Shown: positions 11,497 through 22,766, numbered from the stretch's first letter. The stretch is DNA of 32,000 bases from an uncultured Actinomycetes bacterium (GCA_963843975.1 CAWJMG010000003.1:930001-962000); one strand, 5' to 3'. The notes: generated by a model not told the origin, from the letters alone. A program made the numbers and translations.

Positions 11497-12705
11497 TCAA
11501 GGTTCGGCGGGCACCGGCGGACGGCGGTCTCCGCCGGCCCAGCGGAGCGCGGCTCCGGCGACGAGCATGACCGCGATCGCGGCTGCGGCGTTCAGCGGCA
11601 GCCCGGCGTACTCGATCGTGCGGGTGGGGAAGCCGCCGAGGCCGGTCGCGGAGATGACGAGCGTCGAGATGCCGATCAGCAGCGTGGCGACGCACGCGAC
11701 CACGGCGGCGGCTCGCGGTGACGGACGACGGCTGCGCAGCGGCGCGTCCCACCAGACCAGGGGCGCGTGCTCGAGCGGCCAGAGCAGGCGGACGACCGCC
11801 CACACGCCCACGCCGTACGCCGCGATGAACACGACGCTGCCGAGCAGGTAGCCCCAGCCGGCGGGGACGGGGTAGCCGTCGGCGCCGATGGTCACCGGCC
11901 GGTCGAGGTGCAGCGCGTGCGCGAGGGTCGACACGGCGATGAGCACCGGGAGGTGCCAGAGGTAGAGCGTCATCGCGACGAGGTTGACGCCAGTGACGGG
12001 ACGCCAGATTCGAGGACGCTCGAGCAGACGCCGGAGGGGCGCGTCGAGCAGCGTGACCAGCGCAGCCAGCACGACCGAATGGATCGCGAGCACGATCGTC
12101 GGCGGGGCCATGTTGCTCACGGGCTCGCCGGGCATGCCGACCATCGAGACCGGGTACGGGCCGTAGCGGATGAGGACGGCGTTCGCGGTGAAGGCGAGCG
12201 CGACGGCCGCGACCAGCACCGGCCACGGGTAGGCGCCGAGCGAGCCGTGGGAGCGCAGTGCGCCGAGGTAGGCGGGCACGGCCCAGGCGAGGACGAAGTT
12301 GAGCAGCGCCACCGCCTCGGGGAGCCCGAGCGCGAACCGCGCGAGGTCGACGAGCCCGACCAGTCCGAGCAGCAGCAGGAGGCCGAGCACTCCCCCGAGC
12401 AGGCTCGTCCGACCGAACAGCGGCGCGAGCGCCGTCACGAGGAGGTACGCGCCGAGGAACCACAGCAGCTGCGTGGTCAGCATCATGAGCGGCTCGGCCG
12501 TCCTCGCCGGCGCGAGCAGCGTGACGACCGTGGCGATGACGGCCATGAGACCGAGGTAGATCCAGACCGGGCGCAGCAGACGCCGGCCACGACCCCAGAG
12601 CCACGACGCGTAGTCGCCGCCACGCGCGTGATGGCGTTCGTACGACAGGGCGTTCGCAGCGCCGCCCGCGAAGAAGAACAGCGGCATGATCTGCAGGATC
12701 CAGGT
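11497..12705 (-). pseudogene. Acyltransferase-3 family membrane protein, C-terminal 402 codons, separated from its N-terminus by the integrated element
   Basis: The reading frame is open upstream of the internal ATG at 12687 and reads ...EALTWILQIMPLFFFAGGAANALSY..., followed by about 9 TM helices. The missing first ~69 codons are at 22560-22766. Confidence 0.8.
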
Positions 12706-12713
12706 GAGCGCCT
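12702..12713. repeat. Left junction repeat (attL core) AGGTGAGCGCCT
   Basis: It matches 22556-22567 (AGGCGAGCGCCT) at 11 of 12 positions, and the 8-bp GAGCGCCT is identical. Confidence 0.75.
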
Positions 12714-12749
12714 CAATCCGTCCAGCGCAGTAGTCCCCCGCGTGTCGGC

Positions 12750-13034
12750 CTAGGCGCCGTCGGACTCCTCGGCGGCGGCCCTAGCGGTGGCACGCTCGGC
12801 GGCCCGCTCGCGAGCGCCCTCCCCGTAGTTGATTAGCGGCCGGAGAGCGGCCGACGCGGCGTCACGGAGTGTGTAGGCCGTCGCGAGGTCACCCCCTCCC
12901 ATCCCGTAGATGTAGCCGACAGTCCACCCCTCGGGGTCGGGCTCGAACGTGACGCCGAGGAGGTACTCCTCTCCGGCGGCCAGGAGGTCGGCTACGGCGG
13001 ACAGGGTCTCGGCGTCGTGCGGCTCGGCGGTCAT
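12750..13034 (-). CDS. Hypothetical acidic 94-aa protein (last gene of the leftward operon)
   Basis: Clean ATG ORF with high third-position GC. No recognisable motif. Confidence 0.55.
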   Translation of the reverse strand: MTAEPHDAETLSAVADLLAAGEEYLLGVTFEPDPEGWTVGYIYGMGGGDLATAYTLRDAASAALRPLINYGEGARERAAERATARAAAEESDGA

Positions 13035-13078
13035 GGCCGGAGTCTTGCACCCGGCTCCGACGACCGGGAAGACGCCGA

Positions 13079-13123
13079 GAGCCCCGCACCTCGACGCCGG
13101 GGGAAGCGTGAGGGGCGGGGCTC
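13079..13123 (-). terminator. Hairpin downstream of the 326-aa gene, sharing sequence with the hairpin at 21000-21035
   Basis: GAGCCCCGCaCCTC pairs with GAGGgGCGGGGCTC, with a loop of about 17 nt. On the minus strand it reads GGAGCCCCGCCCCTCAC. Confidence 0.4.
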
Positions 13124-13178
13124 CGGGGTGCTCGGCGGGGCGACGGGGGGGCGCACCCCACCGAGCGGTCTCGGGGGT

Positions 13179-14159
13179 CTAGATCACCTCGACCTCGCCG
13201 AGGTTGTCGAGGATCTCCGACCGGCTCCAGGCGTAGACGGTATCGGCGGCGGCGGCCTGGGCGGCGTCCTCGTCCACGGCCTCGACCTCGACGGAGTAGA
13301 CCGTCACCCGGTAGGACCGGGTCCGGCTCGCGGCGTCGCGGAAGTGGTCCTCCAGCCACCCCGGAAGGGCGGCGTAGGCCTTGCTCACGGCGTCCTCGTA
13401 CTCCGAGCACCACCCCTGACGCACGGCCTGCTCGCGGCACACCTCGCCGATAGCGGTCACGGCGGCCTGACCCTCCCGGTAGCGCGTCGAGGCGAGGCGG
13501 TCGAGGCGCTCGACCTCGGCGGCCTGACGCGCGCTCTCGTCCCTCGCGGCCTGGAGCGCGTCGAGGAGGACCACGAGGGCGGCCGAGGCGTGACCCTCGG
13601 CGCCGGTCAGGTCTCCGGAGCGCGCGGCGTCGACGGCCGCCGAGAGGATCCGCTCCGCCGCTCCGACGGTGTCGGCGTCGGCAGCCTCGACGGCGTCGAG
13701 AGCGGCGGCACGGGAGGACGCCGGGACGACCGGCGCGAGGGGCTCGGGCTCCTCGGCGACGGCCTCGACCGGCCACGCCTGGAGGACCTCCTCCGTCAGG
13801 TCGTGGGCGCCGTGCGCGCGGTGCTCGGCGTCCTCGTGGCCGGACAGGAGGGAGCACGAGTACCCGCGCGGGCTCGGCGCCTTGCACCGCGAGGCGTCGG
13901 GGATCTCGACGGCCTCCAGGCGCCGGGCGTAGCACGTCACGGCCTCGTCACGAGCCGTGAGCCGGACGCGGACGAGGGACTCGGAGGCCGTGGCCTCGGC
14001 GGACTCCAGGGCCTCCACGACGCCGACCTCCCCGACGGTCACGCCGGAGTAGGGCTCGATGAAGCGGACGCGCGCCTCGGGGACGAGGCGGGCGTCCCTG
14101 AGGTGCGGGAGAGCGGTCGAGGCGTCGGGCGCTGCGGGGGTGGAGAGAGTGGCGGTCAT
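13179..14159 (-). CDS. Hypothetical 326-aa protein
   Basis: The ATG at 14159 is preceded by TAAGGAGCCCTCTCACC, the motif copy at 14161-14173. The protein is Ala/Glu-rich and helical in the middle, with a Cys-containing C-terminal part (REQAVRQGWCSEYEDAV). I recognised no family. Confidence 0.6.
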   Translation of the reverse strand: MTATLSTPAAPDASTALPHLRDARLVPEARVRFIEPYSGVTVGEVGVVEALESAEATASESLVRVRLTARDEAVTCYARRLEAVEIPDASRCKAPSPRGYSCSLLSGHEDAEHRAHGAHDLTEEVLQAWPVEAVAEEPEPLAPVVPASSRAAALDAVEAADADTVGAAERILSAAVDAARSGDLTGAEGHASAALVVLLDALQAARDESARQAAEVERLDRLASTRYREGQAAVTAIGEVCREQAVRQGWCSEYEDAVSKAYAALPGWLEDHFRDAASRTRSYRVTVYSVEVEAVDEDAAQAAAADTVYAWSRSEILDNLGEVEVI

Positions 14160-14160
14160 G

Positions 14161-14173
14161 GTGAGAGGGCTCC
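14161..14173 (-). repeat. Start-associated motif copy GGAGCCCTCTCAC
   Basis: One nt upstream of the ATG at 14159. The TAA stop of the upstream gene abuts it. Confidence 0.7.
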
Positions 14174-14467
14174 TTAGCGGTTGGGGTTGGCGGTGCGGTT
14201 GCGGGCGTCGGCGTCGGACCACGAGGCCCGGCGCCGTAGGAGGACCGTCACGACGACGGCCCGGCGGCCGTCGGCGCTCTCGGCGACGACGACGGAGAGA
14301 GGGCCTCGGGTGAAGCGGCGGCGGCCCTCGTGCGGCTCGGACACGTCCGGGCGCCGGAGCGCCTCGGCGATCTCCTCGGGCTCCACGTCACGCTCGGCCA
14401 TGACGCGCCGGGCGTGGTGAGTGAGGGCGACGCCGTCGGGATAGCGGTCGGCCGCGTGCGTCGTCAC
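14174..14467 (-). CDS. DUF4258-like small protein (putative toxin-like fold)
   Basis: A 97-aa protein, ...VALTHHARRVMAERDVEPEEIAEAL..P...HEGRRRFTRGPLSVVV......VVVTVLL. This matches my recollection of the DUF4258 pattern (H-A-x-x-R-M-x-E-R ... VV ... TV). GTG at 14467 with GGAGG 7 nt upstream and a GTGA overlap. Confidence 0.5.
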   Translation of the reverse strand: MTTHAADRYPDGVALTHHARRVMAERDVEPEEIAEALRRPDVSEPHEGRRRFTRGPLSVVVAESADGRRAVVVTVLLRRRASWSDADARNRTANPNR

Positions 14468-14742
14468 GAGGTGGCCTCCGCCGTCACGGCCTCGGCGGCC
14501 TGGACGACGCGCCGGGCCTGACGCCGGGTCCTCCAGGACCCCACGAGCCGGACGGCCAGGAGGACGAGGACGACGCACGCGCGCCACGTCCACCGGAGCG
14601 CGCGCCACGTCAGGACGACGGCCCACCGGAGGAGGTGCCACGCGGCCACGGCCAGGAGGACCGGGAGCGCGAGGAGGACCCACGAGAGCGCGCCGACGAC
14701 GGGCGAGGACGAGGGAGCCGGGGCGCGGCGGTCGTCGCTCAT
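14464..14742 (-). CDS. Hypothetical small membrane protein (2 TM, Trp/Arg-rich)
   Basis: A 92-aa protein from the ATG at 14742, which overlaps the upstream stop as ATGA. Two hydrophobic helices. Confidence 0.5.
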   Translation of the reverse strand: MSDDRRAPAPSSSPVVGALSWVLLALPVLLAVAAWHLLRWAVVLTWRALRWTWRACVVLVLLAVRLVGSWRTRRQARRVVQAAEAVTAEATS

Positions 14743-14960
14743 CGGCCCTCGCCTCCGGCCACGATGCGGAGGCTCGCGGAGTGAGCGTCGGACACGGCCA
14801 CGGCGGCGGGCTCGCGGTCCAGGAGGTCGAGGGCGGCTCGGCGCCACGCGGCGGCCTCGCGGCGTGCGTCGTCCAGGCGGGCGGCGGCCAGGAGGACGCC
14901 GAGGAGGAGGCCGACGGTCGCGGCCACGAGGGCCAGGGCGGCGGCGGAGAGAGCGAACAT
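14739..14960 (-). CDS. Hypothetical small membrane protein (1 TM)
   Basis: A 73-aa protein, MFALSAAALALVAATVGLLLGVLLAAA.... The ATG at 14960 directly follows GGAGCCCTCTCA. Confidence 0.5.
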   Translation of the reverse strand: MFALSAAALALVAATVGLLLGVLLAAARLDDARREAAAWRRAALDLLDREPAAVAVSDAHSASLRIVAGGEGR

Positions 14961-14972
14961 TGAGAGGGCTCC
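14961..14972 (-). repeat. Start-associated motif copy GGAGCCCTCTCA
   Basis: Immediately 5' of the ATG at 14960. Confidence 0.7.
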
Positions 14973-14979
14973 TAGCGAT

Positions 14980-14991
14980 GTGAGAGGGCTC
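14980..14991 (-). repeat. Tandem second motif copy GAGCCCTCTCAC, followed by ATC rather than ATG
   Basis: The minus strand reads GAGCCCTCTCAC-ATC-GCTA-GGAGCCCTCTCA-ATG. Confidence 0.6.
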
Positions 14992-15060
14992 GGAAGTCCC
15001 GGCCGGGGAAGCGCGACGGGGGAGGCACGCTCCCCCGGCCGGGGGTCTAGCGGGGGCGGG

Positions 15061-15660
15061 TCAGGAGGCCTTGACGCACGACGCGGCCGGGGTCGAGAGG
15101 ACCGGGCCGGAGGTGTCGGTGGAGACCTGGACGGCATACCCGGTGAGGGCGAGGGTCGCGCCGTCGGCGAGAGCCGAGCCGGGGCGGCCGATCGTCACCT
15201 GCACCTGCTTCGGCGTCCCCACCTGGAGCGGGACGCCGCACGCCGAGCCGGGGGTGGAGGTCGAGGAGGTGGACTCGACCGACAGGCTCCAGCCGGTCTG
15301 CGGGCTCACGGGCGCGGCGACTCCGGCCACGGTTCCGTCGGCGCCGGTCGCCACGAGGGAGGCGGTGTAGGTGCAGGACTCGCCCGGGTAGATCCCGGAT
15401 CCGCCGGTCGAGGAGAGCACGCCGGAGTCCACGGTCAGGCTCGGGCACCCGGCCGGGCCGGAGGCGGGGCCGACGGTCGTCCACGAGGCGGAGAAGGATC
15501 CGCCCTTGACGGTGCCGGAGAAGTTGGCTCGGGCGAGGTACGCCGCGAGGGCGACTCCGGCGGCGGCCACGACGGCCACGACGGCCACGACGGGGACGCC
15601 GAGGACGCGGCGGCCGAGGATGCCGCGACGGTGGGTCGCGGAGGGGTAGGCGTGGGACAT
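15061..15660 (-). CDS. Predicted secreted or membrane-anchored Ser/Thr/Gly-rich beta-type protein with 4 Cys
   Basis: A 199-aa protein with a basic N-terminus, the hydrophobic anchor VLGVPVVAVVAVVAAAGVALAAYLA, then a low-complexity, beta-rich sequence. The ATG at 15660 directly follows GGAGCCGTCTCAC. Confidence 0.6.
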   Translation of the reverse strand: MSHAYPSATHRRGILGRRVLGVPVVAVVAVVAAAGVALAAYLARANFSGTVKGGSFSASWTTVGPASGPAGCPSLTVDSGVLSSTGGSGIYPGESCTYTASLVATGADGTVAGVAAPVSPQTGWSLSVESTSSTSTPGSACGVPLQVGTPKQVQVTIGRPGSALADGATLALTGYAVQVSTDTSGPVLSTPAASCVKAS

Positions 15661-15673
15661 GTGAGACGGCTCC
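15661..15673 (-). repeat. Start-associated motif variant GGAGCCGTCTCAC
   Basis: Immediately 5' of the ATG at 15660. Confidence 0.65.
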
Positions 15674-15901
15674 TAAACGGTCGAGGGCCTCGCGGCTCTC
15701 CGGCGCCACGGTGGCGCCGTGCTCGGAAAGGTAGCACCCGGCCTCTGACAGGCGCGCCAGGGCGTCCACAGGCGCGGCGTGACCGTTACGGCGGCCGGGT
15801 GCTCTCGACGGCCTCACGGGGCGCTCACGAGCCGCGAAAGGCCTACGTCCGGCGGCGTGTGACAGGGACGCCGACGGCTCCGGGGTGGGACCCTCGGCGG
15901 C
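15674..15901. promoter_or_regulatory. Divergent intergenic control region between the leftward operon and the XRE regulator
   Basis: About 240 bp between divergent starts. It contains a 19-bp palindrome CGGCGCCAC-G-GTGGCGCCG (15701-15719) and the direct 9-mers ACAGGCGCG at 15748 and 15768, 20 bp apart. Confidence 0.45.
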
Positions 15902-16186
15902 ATGGTGACCGCAGCAGAAACCGAGGGCCTAGACGCGCTCGTGTCGGACAACGTCCGAGCCGCACGGGCTCGGCTCCGGATCCGTCAGGCGGACCTAGCG
16001 GAGCGCCTCGGGTGGAGCCGGGCGAGCGTTGCGAGCCTGGAGGACCGGCGCCGACGGGTGACCCTCGCGGACGCGGTCGGCTTGTGCTCGGCGCTCGGGC
16101 TCACCTTGACCGAACTCCTCGACGGCCGGGAGGGCGCCGAGGCCCGGCGGGCTCTCGGCCTGGAGGCGTCCGGACGCAACGTCTAG
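15902..16186 (+). CDS. XRE/Cro-CI-type helix-turn-helix transcriptional regulator
   Basis: A 94-aa protein. LRIRQADLAERLGWSRASVASLEDRRRRVTLADAVGLCSALGLTLTELL is a typical HTH_3 signature. It is the only plus-strand gene in the element. Confidence 0.75.
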   Translation: MVTAAETEGLDALVSDNVRAARARLRIRQADLAERLGWSRASVASLEDRRRRVTLADAVGLCSALGLTLTELLDGREGAEARRALGLEASGRNV

Positions 16187-16190
16187 ACGG

Positions 16191-16243
16191 GTCAGGCCCC
16201 GTGCCGGGAGCCCTCTCACAGGATCGGCGGCACGGGGCCTGAC
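16191..16243. terminator. Perfect 16-bp stem hairpin between convergent genes, with the start-associated motif in its 21-nt loop
   Basis: GTCAGGCCCCGTGCCG (16191-16206) pairs with CGGCACGGGGCCTGAC (16228-16243). The loop is GGAGCCCTCTCACAGGATCGG. Confidence 0.65.
16207..16219 (+). repeat. Motif copy GGAGCCCTCTCAC on the plus strand, not followed by a start codon
   Basis: It sits in the loop of the 16191-16243 hairpin. Confidence 0.7.
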
Positions 16244-16253
16244 GGGTCGAACT

Positions 16254-16487
16254 CTAGTCGCGGTGCGGCTCGTGCTCTGCCAGGGCGTCGAGGGCCTCGG
16301 CCAGGGCTCGGAGGTCCTCGCGGATCTCCGGCTCGGGCTCGACGGCCACGGGCTCCTCGGCCACGGGCGCCGAGCCCCACCCGGAGTGGTCGGCCAGGGT
16401 TGCCGTGAACGCGGAGACCTCCTCCGGCGCACCCGGTTCGGGGGCGAACCGGCGCACCTCGCGCCTCACGAAGTGGTTCCCGCTCAC
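16254..16487 (-). CDS. Hypothetical acidic 77-aa protein
   Basis: GTG at 16487 with GGAGG upstream and a GTGA overlap with the preceding gene. Confidence 0.45.
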   Translation of the reverse strand: MSGNHFVRREVRRFAPEPGAPEEVSAFTATLADHSGWGSAPVAEEPVAVEPEPEIREDLRALAEALDALAEHEPHRD

Positions 16488-16840
16488 GCGGCCACCTCCA
16501 CGGGCTCGACGGAGACGACGCCGACAGGGAGCACCTCGGCCCGGTGTGACGCCTCGCGGATCCACGCGGCGGCCACGGAGGCCCGGAGGTCGGAGGCGGC
16601 CTCGGCGGCGCCGAGCGCGAGCGACGGCGGGAGCGCGCGGTTACTCGGGATCACGAGCAACGGAACGCACCGCGAGGCGATGAGACGACGCGCGGCCTCG
16701 TGGTCTCCGTCCACCTCGCCGGACTCCAGGAGGACGACGAGGGCTCTCCCGTACAGGCGCCGGGTCGAGGTCCGGTAGGCGGTGGCGCCGGGCGTCACTT
16801 GGTGCAGGGCCGTCGCGGCGCCGTACCGGGTGGCGCTCAC
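16484..16840 (-). CDS. Hypothetical 118-aa protein
   Basis: The GTG at 16840 overlaps the upstream stop as GTGA. Sequence ...LYGRALVVLLESGEVDGDHEAARRLIASRCVPLLVIP...; no family assigned. Confidence 0.45.
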   Translation of the reverse strand: MSATRYGAATALHQVTPGATAYRTSTRRLYGRALVVLLESGEVDGDHEAARRLIASRCVPLLVIPSNRALPPSLALGAAEAASDLRASVAAAWIREASHRAEVLPVGVVSVEPVEVAA

Positions 16841-17646
16841 GAGGCGGCGCCGGTCCACTCGACGCGCGGGGCCGTCGCGGCCTTGTGAGCGGCGGCGGCC
16901 TTGTCGGCGGCGCGGTAGTGCTCGACCGCCGAGCCCGCGAGGGTGTCGAGGTCGGCCGGGAGAGGGAGCCGGTCGGCGAGGCGCTCGGTGCGGACCATCT
17001 GGGCGCTGAAGTCGTGCGGTCGCCGGGTGAGGCGGTCGCCGAGCATCTGCGGCACGAGGGCCTCGGCGTACCCGGCGGCACGGAGCGCGACGCCGTCGAG
17101 GGAGGACAGGCTCCGGAAGGCGTCGCGCGCGGCCTCCACGGAGGCCTCGGCCTCGGCGATGCGGCCTCGGGCCTCCGTCGAGGTCCTGACGGCCTCGACG
17201 TGCAGGGCCTCGCGGGTCGCCGGGTCGAGGCAGGCGACTCCGGCGGCGCGGTCCACGTCGGCGGCGGTGTGCCGGGCCTCGGCCACGGCGGCGTGGATCC
17301 GCGCCCACAGGCCGAGGAGCCGGGCGCCGAGCGCGTCGGCGTCGGGGGCCTTCACCTTCACCGGGCCGGAGGTCGTCGCCTCGGCGGCGGCCCTCCACGC
17401 GCCGAGCGCGGCGGCGTGGTCGGTCAGGGCGTCGAGTGCCTCGGAGCGCGTGTCCTCGACGCGGTCCGAGACCGCCGCGTGAGCCGCGAGCGCGTCGGCG
17501 ACCGGCGCCGAGACGGCGGCGAGGTGGGCGAGGAGCCCGGGGTCAGTCTTCGGCTCGGCGGTGGCGGTGAGGATGCCCGGTCCGCCGCTCCACGTCTGCG
17601 GGACGAGGAGGGAGTGGCCGGAAGCGGAGGTGTAGAGGTTCGTCAT
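16837..17646 (-). CDS. Hypothetical 269-aa Ala-rich helical protein
   Basis: The ATG at 17646 is preceded by the degenerate motif GGAGGGCGCTCACG (17647-17660). No family recognised. Confidence 0.55.
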   Translation of the reverse strand: MTNLYTSASGHSLLVPQTWSGGPGILTATAEPKTDPGLLAHLAAVSAPVADALAAHAAVSDRVEDTRSEALDALTDHAAALGAWRAAAEATTSGPVKVKAPDADALGARLLGLWARIHAAVAEARHTAADVDRAAGVACLDPATREALHVEAVRTSTEARGRIAEAEASVEAARDAFRSLSSLDGVALRAAGYAEALVPQMLGDRLTRRPHDFSAQMVRTERLADRLPLPADLDTLAGSAVEHYRAADKAAAAHKAATAPRVEWTGAAS

Positions 17647-18067
17647 CGTGAGCGCCCTCCTAGGGCGCGAGGCCTCGGCCGCCGGGGCGGAGTCGAGGGT
17701 CCGGCCGTCGCGCCAATCGCGACGTTCACCGGGGGTGCGGACGGGGGTCCGCGAGTGTCGGGGGATCGGCGGATTGCCTACTCTCCCAACGGTTTACGGG
17801 GTTCGTGCCAATCGGCCGGCCAGGGAGGCCAGGGCCGAAAGTCCTTGTGCCGCAAGGACTCTGAGCATTCGCCGAAAGTCCGTGTGCGCGTTGCGGTCTC
17901 GCGGTTCGGGGCTCGCGAGGCGGTCGATGGGCTCGGGTCGTCTCGCATTGTGGGATGACTGCGTTAACTAAAGGCCGTCTGACCTGCGGAAACGTCTGTA
18001 AGGCGATTTTGCGGGCGGGGTGGGGTGAGTGGACCGGGACGGGGGTCTCGGGCCTCTACGGGCCGTT

Positions 18068-18277
18068 CTAGGCCGTTCTAGAGGGTGCCTCCTGACGCCG
18101 TCGGAAGGCTCTCGCCTCCTTCGGCGTCACGGTGCCGCCGACGGTCGTCGGCTCCTCGACGCCGACCCGTGAGGCCTCGGCCAGGAGCCGGAGCGCCGCG
18201 AGGGCCTCGACCCGGACGGCCTCGGGGGTCTCGACGCCGAGCGGAGGCCACGGGTCGCGCGTCACCTCGGCCGCCAT
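18068..18277 (-). CDS. Hypothetical 69-aa protein
   Basis: ATG at 18277, overlapping the upstream ORF end by 16 nt. The stop lies inside a tandem GGCCGTTCTA x2 repeat. Confidence 0.4.
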   Translation of the reverse strand: MAAEVTRDPWPPLGVETPEAVRVEALAALRLLAEASRVGVEEPTTVGGTVTPKEARAFRRRQEAPSRTA

Positions 18278-18732
18278 GACAGGTGGTCGGGCTCGACGCA
18301 ACGGGGCTCGGCGCACACGACGCGGATCGGGCCGACGCGCTCGGACGACAGGGCCTCGATCACGAGGCGCCGCACCTCGGCCGCGCGGCTCGGCGACGGC
18401 CACGCCGAGCACCCCGTGGCGGGGTCGTGCTCGGCGAGGCCGACGACGGCGGAGAGGACCTCGGCCGGGTCGCCGGTCGCGAGGGCTCGGCCGAGGGCGT
18501 AGCCGGTCACCTTCGGTCGGCTCGGCTCGGAGGCCTGGACCCGCCGGGTCCGCTCGCGCTGACAGGCGAGGCAGCACCGCGCCCGGCCGCCGGGCTTGCT
18601 CCGGTTGCGGACGAGGAGCGAGAGCCGCGACTCACCGCACGAGGCGCACGCCCGCGAGGCCTCGACGCGCTCGGGCTCGGGGACCTGACGGAGGAGGACG
18701 ACGGCGAGCCGGTCGAGGGTCGTCGTGGTCAT
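18262..18732 (-). CDS. Zinc-ribbon protein with an HNH-associated-like C-terminus
   Basis: A 156-aa protein with CASCG...CCLAC (four Cys) and a C-terminal VVCAEPRCVEPDHLSW. The latter resembles the C-x-x-x-C-V-N-P-x-H-L motif of phage HNH/AP2-type DNA-binding proteins. ATGA overlap at 18729-18732. Confidence 0.45.
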   Translation of the reverse strand: MTTTTLDRLAVVLLRQVPEPERVEASRACASCGESRLSLLVRNRSKPGGRARCCLACQRERTRRVQASEPSRPKVTGYALGRALATGDPAEVLSAVVGLAEHDPATGCSAWPSPSRAAEVRRLVIEALSSERVGPIRVVCAEPRCVEPDHLSWRPR

Positions 18733-19148
18733 CGGCGGCACCCGCCGTGGAGAGGCTGGAGGACGCCGCGCCGAGCCGCGACGGGGCGACCGCACGAGGT
18801 GCAGGGCTCGACCTCGCCGAGGCGAGCGCGGGCGGCGGCCTCCTCGGTCATCCGAGCCATGAGGGCGGCGTAGCGGAGCGGCGCGGCCTCCTCGGCCCGG
18901 AGGTACTCCAGGTCGGGGGTTGCACGCCTCGCACGCTCGGCGGCCACGAGGACGGCCACGCCGGACTCCTCGGCCACGTCGAGGCCGTCGGTCTGCGCGC
19001 GGTCGAGGGCATCGACGGTCAGCCACCTACGGCCCCGGGTCCGCTCGGCGTCGGCACGGAGCGCCGGGACGCACGGCCAACCGGCCAGGGACTCCAGGCC
19101 CTTGCTGTCGTTCACGGTGAGGCCGGGGTCACGGGTGGAGGCGGTCAC
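18729..19148 (-). CDS. Hypothetical 139-aa protein with a C-terminal CxxC...C motif
   Basis: The GTG at 19148 overlaps the upstream stop as GTGA. The C-terminus reads EVEPCTSCGRPVAARRGVLQPLHGGC. Confidence 0.45.
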   Translation of the reverse strand: MTASTRDPGLTVNDSKGLESLAGWPCVPALRADAERTRGRRWLTVDALDRAQTDGLDVAEESGVAVLVAAERARRATPDLEYLRAEEAAPLRYAALMARMTEEAAARARLGEVEPCTSCGRPVAARRGVLQPLHGGCRR

Positions 19149-19990
19149 GGCGCGGGCTCCTCGGCGGGCTGGGGACGGGCGGCGCGCTCGCGGCGGAGGG
19201 CGTCGATACGAGAGAGGTCGGCGGCACGGGTGGCGGCCTCCTCGACGGTCAGGGGCTCGGGCCTCGGCACGGTGAACACGACGCCGACGGCGCCGCGACG
19301 GGAGAGCCGGGCGGCCTCCTCCAGGAGCCGGAAGAAGTCGCCTTGCGAGAGGCGCGCACCCTTCCGGACGCCGGAGCGGAACGCGGCGGTGAGGTACTGC
19401 CTCCAGGCCTCGGCGCGGGTGTAGGTGCCGTGGGGGAGGTGGGCGATGAACGTGCGCGCGTGGTCCTCGGCCAGGGTGCGAGCCGCGAGCGTCGAGGCAC
19501 GAGGGCCGAGGGCCGGGGTCGAGCGCCACGCGGTCAGGAGCCCGGCGGTCGAGACCGGGTCACCCTGGGAACGGAGGAGGAGCGACAGGGCCTCGTCGGC
19601 GGCGGTCGCGGACCACGAGCCCCACCCCCGCGACCGCGCCTCGGCGACGGCCCGCGTGCGGGCGAGCGCCGATGCGTACTCGACCGGCTCGGGGTCCGGC
19701 TCGGGGAGCGCGAGGACGAGCGACCGCGCGAGGGTCTCGGCGGCCGGAGCGCCGTGGTCGTCGCGGGGCTGGAGAGTCAGGACGCCGGAGGCATCGGGGG
19801 CGGCCAGGAACCGGCGTAGGTCGGCGTCCTCGGCCACGCGCCACTCGGCGGCGTGCAGGAGGACGGCCAGGACGCGGCCGACGGCCAGGGGCGACAGGAC
19901 CTCGGACGGAGGAGCCATAGGGCCGTCGAGGTGGGCGACGCCGAGCGCGAGGCGGCGGCCGTCGAGGAGGGCGGGGAGGTTGGCGAACAT
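19145..19990 (-). CDS. Hypothetical 281-aa protein (first gene after the AT-rich island; a replication or DNA-binding role is only a guess)
   Basis: ATG at 19990 (MFANLPALLDG...). The longer track ORF to 20188 has an implausible N-terminus. No family recognised. Confidence 0.5.
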   Translation of the reverse strand: MFANLPALLDGRRLALGVAHLDGPMAPPSEVLSPLAVGRVLAVLLHAAEWRVAEDADLRRFLAAPDASGVLTLQPRDDHGAPAAETLARSLVLALPEPDPEPVEYASALARTRAVAEARSRGWGSWSATAADEALSLLLRSQGDPVSTAGLLTAWRSTPALGPRASTLAARTLAEDHARTFIAHLPHGTYTRAEAWRQYLTAAFRSGVRKGARLSQGDFFRLLEEAARLSRRGAVGVVFTVPRPEPLTVEEAATRAADLSRIDALRRERAARPQPAEEPAP

Positions 19991-20600
19991 GGGGGCGGGT
20001 CTCGCTTTCGGTTGGCGGGTGGAGGTCGAGCGGATCGAGCGGCGGCGGGTCGAGGGGTGGGCGACGGCTCCGAGTAGGACCCGCCTCGGAGCCGTCGCGC
20101 CGGTACGGCCTGAGACCCGCCAAGGCAACGGCCGTACGTCTGTCCCCGCACCGCTCGACGCGGTCGAGCCGGAGGCGCTCGCGCCCACCCCTGCCTCCTG
20201 AAGTCAGGAGCGGGCGTTACCTAGGCGAGCGTCGAGCGGTGCGGGGGTCTAGGGGCTCGGCGCCGGGGCGGCCGAGCGGGTGTCTCACTCCGCAGATAGG
20301 CGAACTCGTGCGCGATCCGCAGCGCGCGGCGCCGGAGCGCCGAGCGTCGGCCGAGGAGGACAGGGCAGGAGGGCGCCAGGAGCCCCCGACCTGCTCACGG
20401 TTCGCCGGGTGAATCTCGGTGGCCGGGCGCCGGGAGCGGCCTGGAGGTGGTCGAGGGCTTGTGCGCTTGTGAACCCTCAGACTCGTACGCACCCTGCCGG
20501 GCTATGCCGCTTCGGAAGGGGACGGGAGCGCGGAGGGGTCCCTCCCCACCCCTCCCGGCGGAAACGCGCGGGGGTTTCGGCGGTTTAGGGCTCGCGAGGC

Positions 20601-20771
20601 GTGATAGTGACGGATTAGCGAGATAGTGACAGATAGGACGAAGTGCCGTTAGTACCTTCTATTTCCTATTCCTGTTAGAGGCTCTCTAAAAACAAACCTA
20701 GAGAGGGAATAGTAAATAGCGGTAGATAGCCTCACTTCGTCCTATCTGTCACTTAGGGCTGAATCTGTCAC
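20601..20771. promoter_or_regulatory. AT-rich island with a 21-bp perfect inverted repeat and four GTGAC(A/G)GAT 9-mers (candidate origin or operator cluster)
   Basis: AGTGACAGATAGGACGAAGTG (20625-20645) is the reverse complement of CACTTCGTCCTATCTGTCACT (20733-20753). GATAGTGAC occurs at 20603 and 20622, and ATCTGTCAC at 20744 and 20763. The 87-bp spacer is strongly AT-rich in a GC-rich context. Confidence 0.55.
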
Positions 20772-20999
20772 CACCCCTCGACCGGCCTCCGCCCGGCGGC
20801 ACCGCCGACGGCCTCCAGGCGCCACCGTCGGCGCTCCCGCGCCACCCTCGGCGGCCTCCTGACGCCGTATCAGGGCTCCAGGAGCCCCGCTCCCGGCCGA
20901 ACGGCCGCACCCCCGTATGTCCGGACCCCCGGCCATTCCGTGCCGCCTACGGGCCTCCTGGGGCCTCGGGGCCTGGAGCCGTGCTCACGCCGGACGCCG

Positions 21000-21035
21000 A
21001 GGAGCCCCGCTCCTCGTGAGAGGGGCGGGGCTCCT
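21000..21035 (-). terminator. Stem-loop 15 nt downstream of the integrase stop
   Basis: AGGAGCCCCGC(t)CCTC pairs with GAGG(g)GCGGGGCTCCT around a 4-nt loop. The minus-strand RNA would be AGGAGCCCCGCCCCUC-UCAC-GAGGAGCGGGGCUCCU. There is no U-tract. Confidence 0.5.
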
Positions 21036-21049
21036 GGTGCTCGGGCCGG

Positions 21050-22504
21050 TCAGGCGGCGGCCTCGTGCTCGACGGCCGCCGGGTCCAGGCGCCATGCGTC
21101 GAGGATCCGGCCGAGGTCGAAGGTCCGGCGGCCTCGGACGCCGGGGCCGAGCGCCAGGGCGCCGACGGTCCGGGCGAGCGCGTCGCGGCGGTCCTCCAGC
21201 GTCCCGGCCTCCCACACGTCCCCGTACGTCCGGCCGGTCTCCCGGAGGACGGTCATCGCGAGCGCCGGGAGAGCCGCGAGGCGCTCGGCCTCGTCCTCGG
21301 CGGCGTCGAGAGCCGCGAGGGCCTCGGCGCGCTCGGAGCGCGGCGCCACGGCCAGGGCGGCGCGTGCCGCGTCCACGCGGTCCTCGGCCTGGGCGAGGCG
21401 CTCGGAGGCCTCGTCGGAGAGCCGCACGGAGACGGTCTCGGGCAGGCTCCCCCACCCGGCGAGCCACGCGGCCGAGACGGCGGCCTCGACGGCCTCGGCG
21501 GAGGCAGCGACGGGACGCGCGCAACGCTGACCGGCGCCGTCCGACGGGCAGCGGTAGAAGGACGGCGCGTCGTGCTTGCTGGAGACCGCGAGGCGCGAGC
21601 CGCACGAGTGGCAGACGAGGACGCCGGAGAGCAGACGGGCCGGGCGGCGGTTGCTCGTGCTCGTGCGGCGCTCGGGCGCCGAGAGGATCCGGCGCACCTC
21701 GCGGAGCGTCGAGGCGTCGAGGACCTCGGCCGCGCCGTCTCCCTTGACGAGAGTGTTTCGGAGGCTCGTCCGGCTCCAGGCGGCGGCACGACGCGGGGCG
21801 TGGCCGTGGTCGTTGAGGTAGCGCACGACGCGCACGACGGGCTCTCCAGCGACGACGCGGGCGGCGGCGAGGCGGAGCGTCGCGGCCTCGGCCTCGTCCA
21901 CCTCCAGGACCTTTCCGGCGCCGTCGGGGTTGGGGACGGCGCGGAGGCCGTAGGCAATGACTCCGCCGTTCCAACGGCCCTCAGCGCGGAGGCGCTCGTG
22001 GGAGGCGATGTTGCGGGCTTTCGTCGCCTCGCGCTCGGCCTCGGCCATGCCTCCGAGGACGCCGACCATGAGCGGCCACGCCGAGACGTCGCCGGAGTCG
22101 AGATTGTCCGAGTAGGACAGGAACCGGACCGGCTCGGAGACCGCCGTGCCGTCGGCGTCAATGCCCTTCACCGTGTCGAGGAACCGGGCGAGTCCGGCGG
22201 TGCCGCCACGGCTCACGCGGTCCAGGCGCCACGCGAGGAGATGCGTCGCGCGACCCTCGCGGGCGTCGGCGAGCCACGCGAGGAGGCCGGGCCGGTTGCG
22301 GAGGGCGCCGGACTCTCCGTCGTCGGTCCAGATGGAGACCACCTCCAGGCCGTGACGCTCGGCGAGGGCGCGGAGGTCGGCCTCTTGTGCCTGGAGGCCG
22401 GTCGAGTCGGCCCCGGAGGCCTTGCTCTTGCGGAGGTACAGGGAGGCGGTGGCGGTCATGGTCGAGGAGGGGGCCAGCGTGCGTGAGGTTGCTCGGGTGG
22501 TCAT
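21050..22504 (-). CDS. Large serine recombinase (integrase)
   Basis: A 484-aa protein. The N-terminal resolvase-type catalytic domain reads ASLYLRKSK...DDGESGALRNRPGL...LLAWRLDRVSRG. The recombinase domain contains GRWNGGVIAYG. The zinc ribbon reads VCHSCGSRL...YRCP...QRC, followed by an Ala/Glu-rich coiled-coil tail. The ATG at 22504 directly follows GGAGCCCTCTCAC. Confidence 0.9.
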   Translation of the reverse strand: MTTRATSRTLAPSSTMTATASLYLRKSKASGADSTGLQAQEADLRALAERHGLEVVSIWTDDGESGALRNRPGLLAWLADAREGRATHLLAWRLDRVSRGGTAGLARFLDTVKGIDADGTAVSEPVRFLSYSDNLDSGDVSAWPLMVGVLGGMAEAEREATKARNIASHERLRAEGRWNGGVIAYGLRAVPNPDGAGKVLEVDEAEAATLRLAAARVVAGEPVVRVVRYLNDHGHAPRRAAAWSRTSLRNTLVKGDGAAEVLDASTLREVRRILSAPERRTSTSNRRPARLLSGVLVCHSCGSRLAVSSKHDAPSFYRCPSDGAGQRCARPVAASAEAVEAAVSAAWLAGWGSLPETVSVRLSDEASERLAQAEDRVDAARAALAVAPRSERAEALAALDAAEDEAERLAALPALAMTVLRETGRTYGDVWEAGTLEDRRDALARTVGALALGPGVRGRRTFDLGRILDAWRLDPAAVEHEAAA

Positions 22505-22517
22505 GTGAGAGGGCTCC
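22505..22517 (-). repeat. Start-associated motif copy GGAGCCCTCTCAC
   Basis: Immediately 5' of the integrase ATG. Confidence 0.7.
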
Positions 22518-22535
22518 GTTTCGGCGAGCGGTGAA

Positions 22536-22766
22536 CTACTGCTCTCCGAAGATAGAGGCGAGCGCCTGCGTCCACGGGAACGCCGCGAGCAGGTTGCCGA
22601 GCACGGGTACGCCGTCCGGCCAGGCCACCACGGCCATGATCACGTGGCCGACCACGACGACGAGCAGCGCCGCCGCGCGAGCGCCGTCCACGACGCGGTC
22701 ACGGTCGGGCGGCGTCTCGGCCGCAGCCCGAGCCGTCGGCACCGCCGCGAACACCCGGATGCTCAC
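22536..22766 (-). pseudogene. Acyltransferase-3 N-terminal fragment (69 native codons plus 7 element-derived codons and a stop)
   Basis: GTG at 22766, reading ...DGARAAALLVVVVGHVIMAVVAWPDGVPVLGNLLAAFPWTQAL, then ASIFGEQ-stop. The native part ends at 22560. Confidence 0.75.
22556..22567. repeat. Right junction repeat (attR core) AGGCGAGCGCCT
   Basis: Matches 12702-12713 at 11 of 12 positions. Confidence 0.75.

Follow-up and report, generated by a model that had tools for sequence, protein, structure and literature searches.

A composite palindrome shared by an actinobacterial serine-integrase island and Cluster AZ-type temperate actinophages: a putative protein-binding origin-like or control site

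Phage P4 carries short octamer iterons at two separate loci in its genome, ori and crr. PICI origins consist of two sets of short repeats that flank an AT-rich, putative melting region (PMC6092414). In P4 alpha, and in ORF904 of pRN1, a C-terminal winged-helix domain that follows the helicase binds DNA, and has been proposed to recognize the origin (PMC2777425). The locus described here is an imperfect palindrome in which two sets of a short word, GTGACRGAT, face outward on either side of a low-GC core. It occurs in the window (the whole stretch of DNA analysed, 32,000 nucleotides), which is a his/trp biosynthesis region. The comparisons below show that it is the single copy, in an integrated island, of a conserved composite cis-element common to Cluster AZ-type temperate actinophages, an element not described in the literature that we searched. 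Most likely it is a protein-binding site, origin-like or for control; the origin reading itself is plausible but unproven. The features are collected in Table 1.

Table 1. Features of the palindrome and of the island that contains it, numbered from the first nucleotide of the window
Feature	Position	Strand	Remarks
Imperfect palindrome, whole	20595..20780	.	186 bp; outward GTGACRGAT word sets on both sides of the low-GC core
Repeat word 1, GTGACGGAT	20607..20615	+	
Repeat word 2, GTGACAGAT	20626..20634	+	Within left arm of 21-bp inverted repeat (20625-20645)
Repeat word 3, GTGACAGAT	20744..20752	-	Within right arm of 21-bp inverted repeat (20733-20753)
Repeat word 4, GTGACAGAT	20763..20771	-	19 bp from word 3
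Low-GC core	20646..20732	.	87 bp, 40% GC; inner palindrome inside
Promoter-like bipartite motif, TGAGCAGGTCGGGGGCTCCTGGCGCCCTCC	20368..20397	-	In gene sense, 209 bp after the palindrome and 377 bp before the 281-aa ORF
281-aa ORF	19145..19990	-	First gene after the palindrome; residues ~176-239 homologous to AZ-type phage primase/helicase C-terminal domain
Large serine recombinase (integrase)	21050..22504	-	Right end of island; stop codon 278 bp from the palindrome
Xre-type HTH regulator	15902..16186	+	70% identical to L009 counterpart; own divergent switch region 15661-15901
Integrated element with palindrome	12714..22555	.	9.84 kb; 12-bp cores 12702-13 and 22556-67; in host Acyl_transf_3 gene
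attL	about 12702-12758		With attR rebuilds attP
attR	22511..22567	.	With attL rebuilds serine-integrase attP dyad

The palindrome and its words are far beyond chance. GTGACRGAT occurs four times in the window, twice on each strand, always at the palindrome and nowhere else; 0.33 matches are expected by chance, and four or more were found in 0 of 100 shuffles. The words are spaced 19 bp apart on each side, and all pairs share one symmetry centre, at 20689. Two of them lie in arms that match perfectly: the left arm reads AGTGACAGATAGGACGAAGTG, and the right arm is its exact reverse complement. Allowing for mismatches, the outer dyad extends to arms of up to 48 nt with 79% complementarity. GC content falls from ~74% across the window to that of the core, which reads TATTCCCTCTCT...CAGGAATAGGAAATAG on the gene-sense (minus) strand, a motif common to the phage copies. 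Within it, CTCTCTA (20682-88) and TAGAGAG (20699-705) form an inner palindrome centred on 20693.5, 4.5 bp off the outer centre. As a single strand of 186 nt, 20595-20780 folds with a dG of -93 kcal/mol (z = -11.8), and the opposite strand about equally well. The initial annotation of this DNA had already reported the AT-rich stretch in GC-rich surroundings, the perfect 21-bp inverted repeat, the four 9-mers (two direct on the left and two inverted on the right) and the second, imperfect palindrome in the spacer, and all of these were recovered. The left-hand spans given there, 20603-20615 and 20622-20634, include an extra ATAG belonging to a longer, 17-nt repeat. One detail needed correction: the non-coding stretch, put at 860 bp, measures about 1,059 bp (19991-21049) by codon-position GC. 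This non-coding gap contains neither a T-tract or intrinsic terminator nor a DnaA box, and a consensus scan found no sigma-70-type promoter there, whether in the core or close to it. Known RNA families and tRNAs can be ruled out: no Rfam covariance model matched at its gathering score, and no tRNA or tmRNA was found in the window.

The boundaries of the island follow from comparison with unoccupied sites. In four genomes of the same genus, position 12713 is joined directly to 22556, with a 12-bp overlap, and the intervening DNA is therefore an insertion inside the Acyl_transf_3 gene. This gene is split by the insertion, and so the '76-aa ORF' at 22536-22766 is its severed 5' part. The attP rebuilt from the two ends is a 54-bp imperfect dyad typical of serine integrases, ACTACTGC...GAGGCGAGCGCCTC...GCAGTAGT, the outer halves of which are ACTACTGC and GCAGTAGT; it lies upstream of int and contains no GTGACRGAT. 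A metagenomic contig with a related integrase (L009) carries four of the island genes in a circularly permuted order that exactly matches the rebuilt attP. From the mapped att sites and this gene order it follows that the palindrome is internal to the element, 278 bp beyond the int stop codon, and is not attP. Among the island ORFs there is no recognizable helicase, primase or Rep: we found no Walker A motif, no HUH motif, and no match to a replication family in Pfam, NCBIfam or PHROG. Relaxase, ParAB and FtsK-like genes are likewise missing near the palindrome, in the island and in the phages described below. The island has the phage-like trait of a start-associated motif, GGAGCCCTCTCAC, at its start codons (e.g. 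22504 and 15660), which resembles the 'start associated sequences' of Cluster K mycobacteriophages and Cluster EF Microbacterium phages (PMC7302621). Another inverted repeat, perfect over 18 bp (CCCCGCACCGCTCGACGC; 20144-20161 and 20229-20246, with a 67-nt spacer), is located in the GC-rich non-coding leader that runs from the TGAGCA motif to the 281-aa ORF.

The DNA of the window palindrome has no similarity to phage and plasmid records, and a scan of genome contigs with an integrase pattern returned no relatives; relatives were found instead via proteins, and via the phage copies used in turn as queries. Homologs of the integrase with 43-56% identity have a similar structure downstream of int. 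In L006 its arms are 43-50 nt long and start within a few bases of the int stop codon; in L005 they are 36 nt, and additional GTGACG words are present; in L009 the palindrome is cut by the contig end. This last contig (at 5950-6008) and L008 (at its contig end), both metagenomic and both with close integrase homologs, end at the palindrome or shortly before it; assembly may break off at such a structure, which could leave the element under-represented in assemblies. A scan of 30 loci revealed the architecture in many actinophage contigs, whose integrases share 25-36% identity with that of the window. Two more distant phages, L036 (4529-4622) and L039 (4396-4491), have the same architecture with GTGTAG in place of GTGACG on both arms, a natural specificity switch that could help identify the binding protein. 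A further, related island of ~10.9 kb, in Micromonospora aurantiaca (L017, 9975-20858), has a serine integrase 43% identical to that of the window and interrupts a DUF4192 gene. Among its products are a 310-aa member of the 281-aa family (15490-16422, minus strand) and HTH_3, DUF2637 and HTH_36 proteins, and its post-int gap contains an 18-nt inverted repeat that includes GTGAC, without the full palindrome.

With phage copies as queries, the element was recovered from the Cluster AZ Arthrobacter phages Berrie, Cassia, Asa16, KeAlii, Janeemi, Crewmate and others, and also from Arthrobacter phage Soondubu and the Microbacterium phages Barnstormer and UtzChips. In all, the palindrome architecture is present in about 20 phage instances, metagenomic actinophages included and several of them close kin, and some of these copies contain the identical word GTGACGGAT. 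The palindrome often occurs twice per genome, as in Cluster AZ phages and in one viral contig (L077/L116). The two copies of Berrie are near-identical, with the half-site pattern ++-+-- in each. One heads the early DNA-metabolism block and precedes its Cas4 exonuclease gene; the other comes directly after the serine integrase gene and heads the block that follows. The phage consensus begins with (GTGACGRA)n GTGACGG-N7-CGTCAC, continues through a ~45-bp low-GC core with CTCTCTC on the sense strand to RTGACG-N7-CGTCAC TTCGTCAC, and, after a spacer of 10-60 bp, ends with TGAGCA-N13-GGCC-GACTCCT, a Shine-Dalgarno sequence and a start codon. IMG/VR, scanned with a 14-base pattern, yielded six further palindromic instances, of which two belong to a single viral genome; the pattern matched viral contigs mostly by chance, and only 6 of 80 loci were palindromic. 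When 14 instances and the six from IMG/VR are compared side by side, the layout is the same: inverted GTGAC(G/A)G sets around a low-GC core that is CT-rich on the gene-sense strand. PHROG and Pfam searches with the genes that follow the phage palindromes were uninformative.

Two of the relatives combine the palindrome with homologs of the 281-aa ORF. L074 has the same synteny as the window: serine integrase, small ORF, palindrome, five tandem motifs, and a 339-aa homolog of the 281-aa ORF. Its palindrome has GTGACG twice in direct orientation, TCTCTCTC as its core and CGTCAC twice as the inverted word, and its tandem motifs (1955-2200) are five copies of GTGAGCA-N12/13-CTGGCC-CTCC. In L072/73 the palindrome is followed after 10 bp by TGAGCA-N17-GGACTCCT, and then by a 274-aa homolog. 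The window itself holds one good copy of the motif, which in its general form, TGAGCA-N17-CTCCT, comes after the palindrome in the phages, L074 and L072. It is a single copy by a loose pattern for which 0.16 chance hits are expected per 32 kb, and it lies farther from the palindrome than the 10-60 bp seen in phages. In window and phages, the palindrome heads a co-directional gene block. The motif TGAGCA-N12/13-(C)YGGCC-(GA)CTCC(T) precedes several Cluster AZ blocks (L060, L061 and L062: Berrie, Cassia), such as those of the RDF gene and of Berrie gene 61. Since it is found before blocks without a palindrome as well, it has the behaviour of a promoter type, and it may be the type used by a phage sigma-like protein, Berrie gp46, which gives weak matches to Sigma70_r2 and r4. 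Homologs of gp46 are conserved in AZ phages, and there is none in the island.

If the palindrome is bound by protein, the 281-aa protein is a candidate. By sequence it defines a very rare family: only four remote relatives were found among 1.84 billion representatives. Pfam finds nothing in this family, and a sequence search of the PDB with it found nothing significant. Profile comparison with hhalign matched it to the C-terminus of AZ-type phage primase/helicases, with 86% probability and E = 4.8e-6 over 64 columns against a three-phage profile, and with E = 1.3e-4 against a seven-phage profile. Thirty column-shuffled control profiles scored at most 15.8 versus 41.8 for the real one, and none of 20 other proteins, from the island and from phages, gave a match. 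The family's structure model has a pLDDT of 75 and no significant Foldseek match; its weak, non-significant hits are mostly winged-helix domains and phage primase/helicases. When the profile of seven AZ-type primase C-termini was run against the PDB, the P4 alpha chain was not retrieved, and the sole match, at E = 4.2, was the C-terminal region of another 'DNA primase'. The AZ domain is thus not tied by sequence to the solved P4 alpha domain (PDB 1ka8, PF03288). The AZ-type primase is encoded in all four phage records that are complete enough to judge, and no AZ-type primase/helicase is present in the host genome. A basic wing in the domain, F-G-[IV]-R-[RK]-x-R, is kept in five of five phages with the GTGACG word and lost in both phages with GTGTAG. 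This fits co-variation of repeat word and domain wing, in a comparison that is confounded by phylogeny. In L005 the palindrome is kept and the first ORF is without the primase/helicase C-terminal domain. The Xre-type regulator is a possible alternative binder, its own switch region notwithstanding. A host factor is unlikely: GTGACR-N7-YGTCAC has one site in the host genome versus about 0.8 expected, and so shows no host transcription-factor regulon on this dyad.

How, then, might the palindrome function? Tentatively, and at somewhat less than an even chance, we rank first the reading that it is a double-stranded DNA platform for the primase/helicase-type C-terminal domain, and acts as a probably helper-dependent origin. 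The inverted sets and the meltable core fit the PICI layout, and two copies per phage are compatible with it, which is why an origin heads the ranking. By this reading the palindrome would work as double-stranded DNA, with both flanks bound by a winged-helix-type domain: the primase/helicase C-terminus in the phages and, as the corresponding candidate, the stand-alone 281-aa protein in the islands. The bound flanks would then position helicase on either side of an easily melted core, by analogy with P4 alpha and with PICI Pri-Rep origins. Helicase, primase and polymerase are missing from the island, and no phage of this kind is present in the host, so replication would need a helper; speculatively, the island would replicate only with these three proteins from a helper phage of this lineage, in the manner of a satellite. 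The origin proposed in the initial annotation gains from the retention of the repeats in islands and from the adjacent primase/helicase-like domain, and loses from the lack of Rep, helicase and primase and from the two copies per AZ genome, which sit at block heads before a promoter-like motif. Loss of the repeats from homologous islands had been named as the observation that would tell against it; L074, L072/73 and L005 keep inverted GTGACG sets around a low-GC core, and the origin reading stands in that respect. The reading is also weakened by L005, whose first ORF is without the domain, by the host genome, which has no AZ-type primase/helicase, by the missing sequence match to P4 alpha, and by the length of the domain homology, 64 columns; the constant position of the phage copies, just upstream of the promoter-like motif, suits an operator equally well. 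Since the phage copies occur twice per genome, at block heads and before this motif, a control region, which the initial annotation had listed as an alternative, is nearly as likely. In such a region, which we rate a little below the origin, the GTGACR words would be operators that switch the adjacent promoter or promoters of the downstream block on and off, in the hands of the phages' immunity repressor, of the sigma-like gp46, or of the island's 281-aa or Xre protein regulating itself. All phage copies head co-directional blocks; in most of them TGAGCA-N13-GGCCGACTCCT, a motif found before other blocks as well, comes 10-60 bp later; and the downstream motif is kept in the window and, in five tandem copies, in L074. 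The arms of the phage copies contain a classic 19-bp operator-like dyad, GTGACGG-N7-CGTCAC, and in a prophage, with attP upstream of int, the two copies would head both long transcription units. Cluster AZ and EH phages form immune lysogens for which repressor and operator have not been reported (PMC8758107; bioRxiv 10.1101/2025.05.26.655371). Against operators, the 6-9-nt word is constant across phages and islands whose integrases are 25-56% identical, although immunity operators normally diversify; symmetry over the full 100-190 bp would be unneeded; the island has no gp46 homolog; the scan detected no sigma-70-type promoter; and in the window 209 bp separate the palindrome from the motif, and about 600 bp separate it from the gene. 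The two functions can coexist, as in the autoregulated rep genes of iteron plasmids. A more specific proposal, which we consider unlikely, is that the island is an actinobacterial satellite or defence island of Cluster AZ-like phages. With its copy of the helper's palindrome and its stand-alone DNA-binding domain, it would either capture the helper's replisome to amplify itself or block helper replication at the helper's two palindromes.

The remaining readings are less probable than these. A single-stranded hairpin, acting as RNA (a terminator, RNase III site or antisense RNA) or as DNA (initiation of the sso type), is improbable in spite of its great stability (z of -10 to -12). Compensatory changes do keep the inner stem, which is CTCAAGA/TCTTGAG in relatives and CTCTCTA/TAGAGAG in the window, and in nearly every instance it is the same strand that has the pyrimidine-rich loop. 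Hairpin stability, however, does not explain why a fixed word recurs in tandem at 8-19 bp phasing; no Rfam match or T-tract terminator accompanies the structure; and the phages are double-stranded DNA phages with their own primase. Mismatches in the gene-sense stem are A.C in 26 cases versus G.T in 11, which favours the antisense strand and disfavours a sense-strand RNA hairpin such as a 3' structure of the int mRNA; the antisense fold is the more stable in 10 of 14 instances. The 14 instances are related to each other, and the mismatch bias is therefore only suggestive of a DNA-level element or, at most, an antisense or single-stranded DNA hairpin. As a sense-strand transcript, the structured ncRNA of the initial annotation is disfavoured. 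Another kind of DNA-handling locus, for packaging (pac/cos-like), partition (parS-like) or transfer (clt/oriT-like), is slightly less probable again. Extrachromosomal mycobacteriophages have parS loci that are arrays of 8-bp direct repeats (PMC7157519). The same genome, moreover, has at least 15 (G)TGACGG words at ~11-bp spacing between the TrwC relaxase and HTH_17 genes of a different integrative element, an oriT-like position. Yet this relaxase-linked array consists of direct repeats only, and has neither palindrome nor low-GC core, and the palindrome has no gene for relaxase, ParAB or FtsK-like protein nearby. Nothing was found to support a packaging site, another of the earlier suggestions; the Microbacterium relatives of Clusters EB and EH are reported to have defined cohesive ends, hence cos-type packaging (PMC7302621), and both Berrie palindromes are inside the linear record, away from its ends. 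Very improbable, finally, are three further accounts of the locus: a site for the serine recombinase (an attP, or a segment that it inverts), a MITE, and a palindrome arisen by chance. The palindrome does adjoin a serine recombinase gene, and perfect 21-bp inverted repeats do surround an 87-bp segment. The mapping of attL and attR, however, which puts crossover at 12702-13 and 22556-67, rules out attP and an invertible segment; the half-sites of the rebuilt attP, upstream of int, are different; the L009 gene order is permuted as that attP predicts; and the palindrome is intact within the integrated element. The spacer is itself palindromic, so inversion would change little, and phage copy A is about 15 kb from int. 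The 4.19-Mb source genome has one copy of the palindrome, and 62 genomes of its family have none; the palindrome is therefore not a MITE.

The (G)TGACGG array merits description in its own right. It is situated on another contig of the same genome (G000:C1, about 1125150-1125400; L071, about 12150-12400; L068, 1300-1560), with words about 10-13 bp apart, in the divergent gap between a TrwC relaxase/helicase gene (9764-12142 of L071, minus strand) and an HTH_17 excisionase-family gene (12534-13046, plus strand). An ORF with a tyrosine-integrase domain comes after the relaxase gene. The array resembles the oriT region of a second integrative element, mobilisable or conjugative, in which the same heptamer is used. 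In pSAM2, Xis and Int bind GTCACGCAG repeats, a parallel that we have not used as evidence.

The palindrome links the AZ/EH phages to ~10-kb serine-integrase islands that have no structural or replication genes, and that keep a phage cis-element together with a detached DNA-binding domain of the primase/helicase type. For Cluster AZ and EH phages, which form immune lysogens and for which neither repressor nor origins are known, this conserved and readily recognized element provides two exact places per genome for testing both. Helper dependence of the island, if borne out, would mean that satellites can exploit or block a helper by a new route; should the element turn out to be no more than an operator, an uncharacterised immunity system would gain the operator that it lacks.

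Among described systems, the origins of PICIs and SaPIs resemble the locus in having two sets of short repeats around an AT-rich region, in a small integrated element, with a primase/helicase-related gene adjacent (PMC6092414). They differ in that the neighbouring gene here encodes a homolog of the C-terminal domain only, without the primase or helicase of a pri-rep gene; the two repeat sets, mutually inverted, make up a single long palindrome; the integrase belongs to the large serine recombinases; and the element is also present in the presumed helper phages. P4 alpha offers an initiator built of primase, helicase and a C-terminal winged-helix DNA-binding domain (PMC2777425), and the two palindromes per genome in Berrie and in one viral contig recall the pairing of ori with crr. 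Unlike P4, the AZ primase C-terminus has no sequence match to the solved domain of alpha, the words are different, and the island's domain is on a separate, 281-aa protein. Operator and promoter regions of temperate phages, such as the stoperators of Cluster A mycobacteriophages, compare in that here, too, short repeated words stand at operon heads in a temperate actinophage lineage (PMC8758107); the present word differs from them in its conservation across very divergent phages, its full-length dyad and its lack of a detectable sigma-70-type promoter. The locus also resembles the intergenic repeats of Cluster AZ and EH actinophages, with which it shares words (including GTGACGGAT), inverted sets, a CT-rich, low-GC core, a position after the integrase gene and TGAGCA...CTCCT. 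Here too there are differences. The window has two words per side at 19-bp spacing, compared with 8-10 bp in the phages, no internal GTGACGG-N7-CGTCAC dyad, a core of 87 bp rather than about 45 bp, and a next gene that is ~600 bp away.
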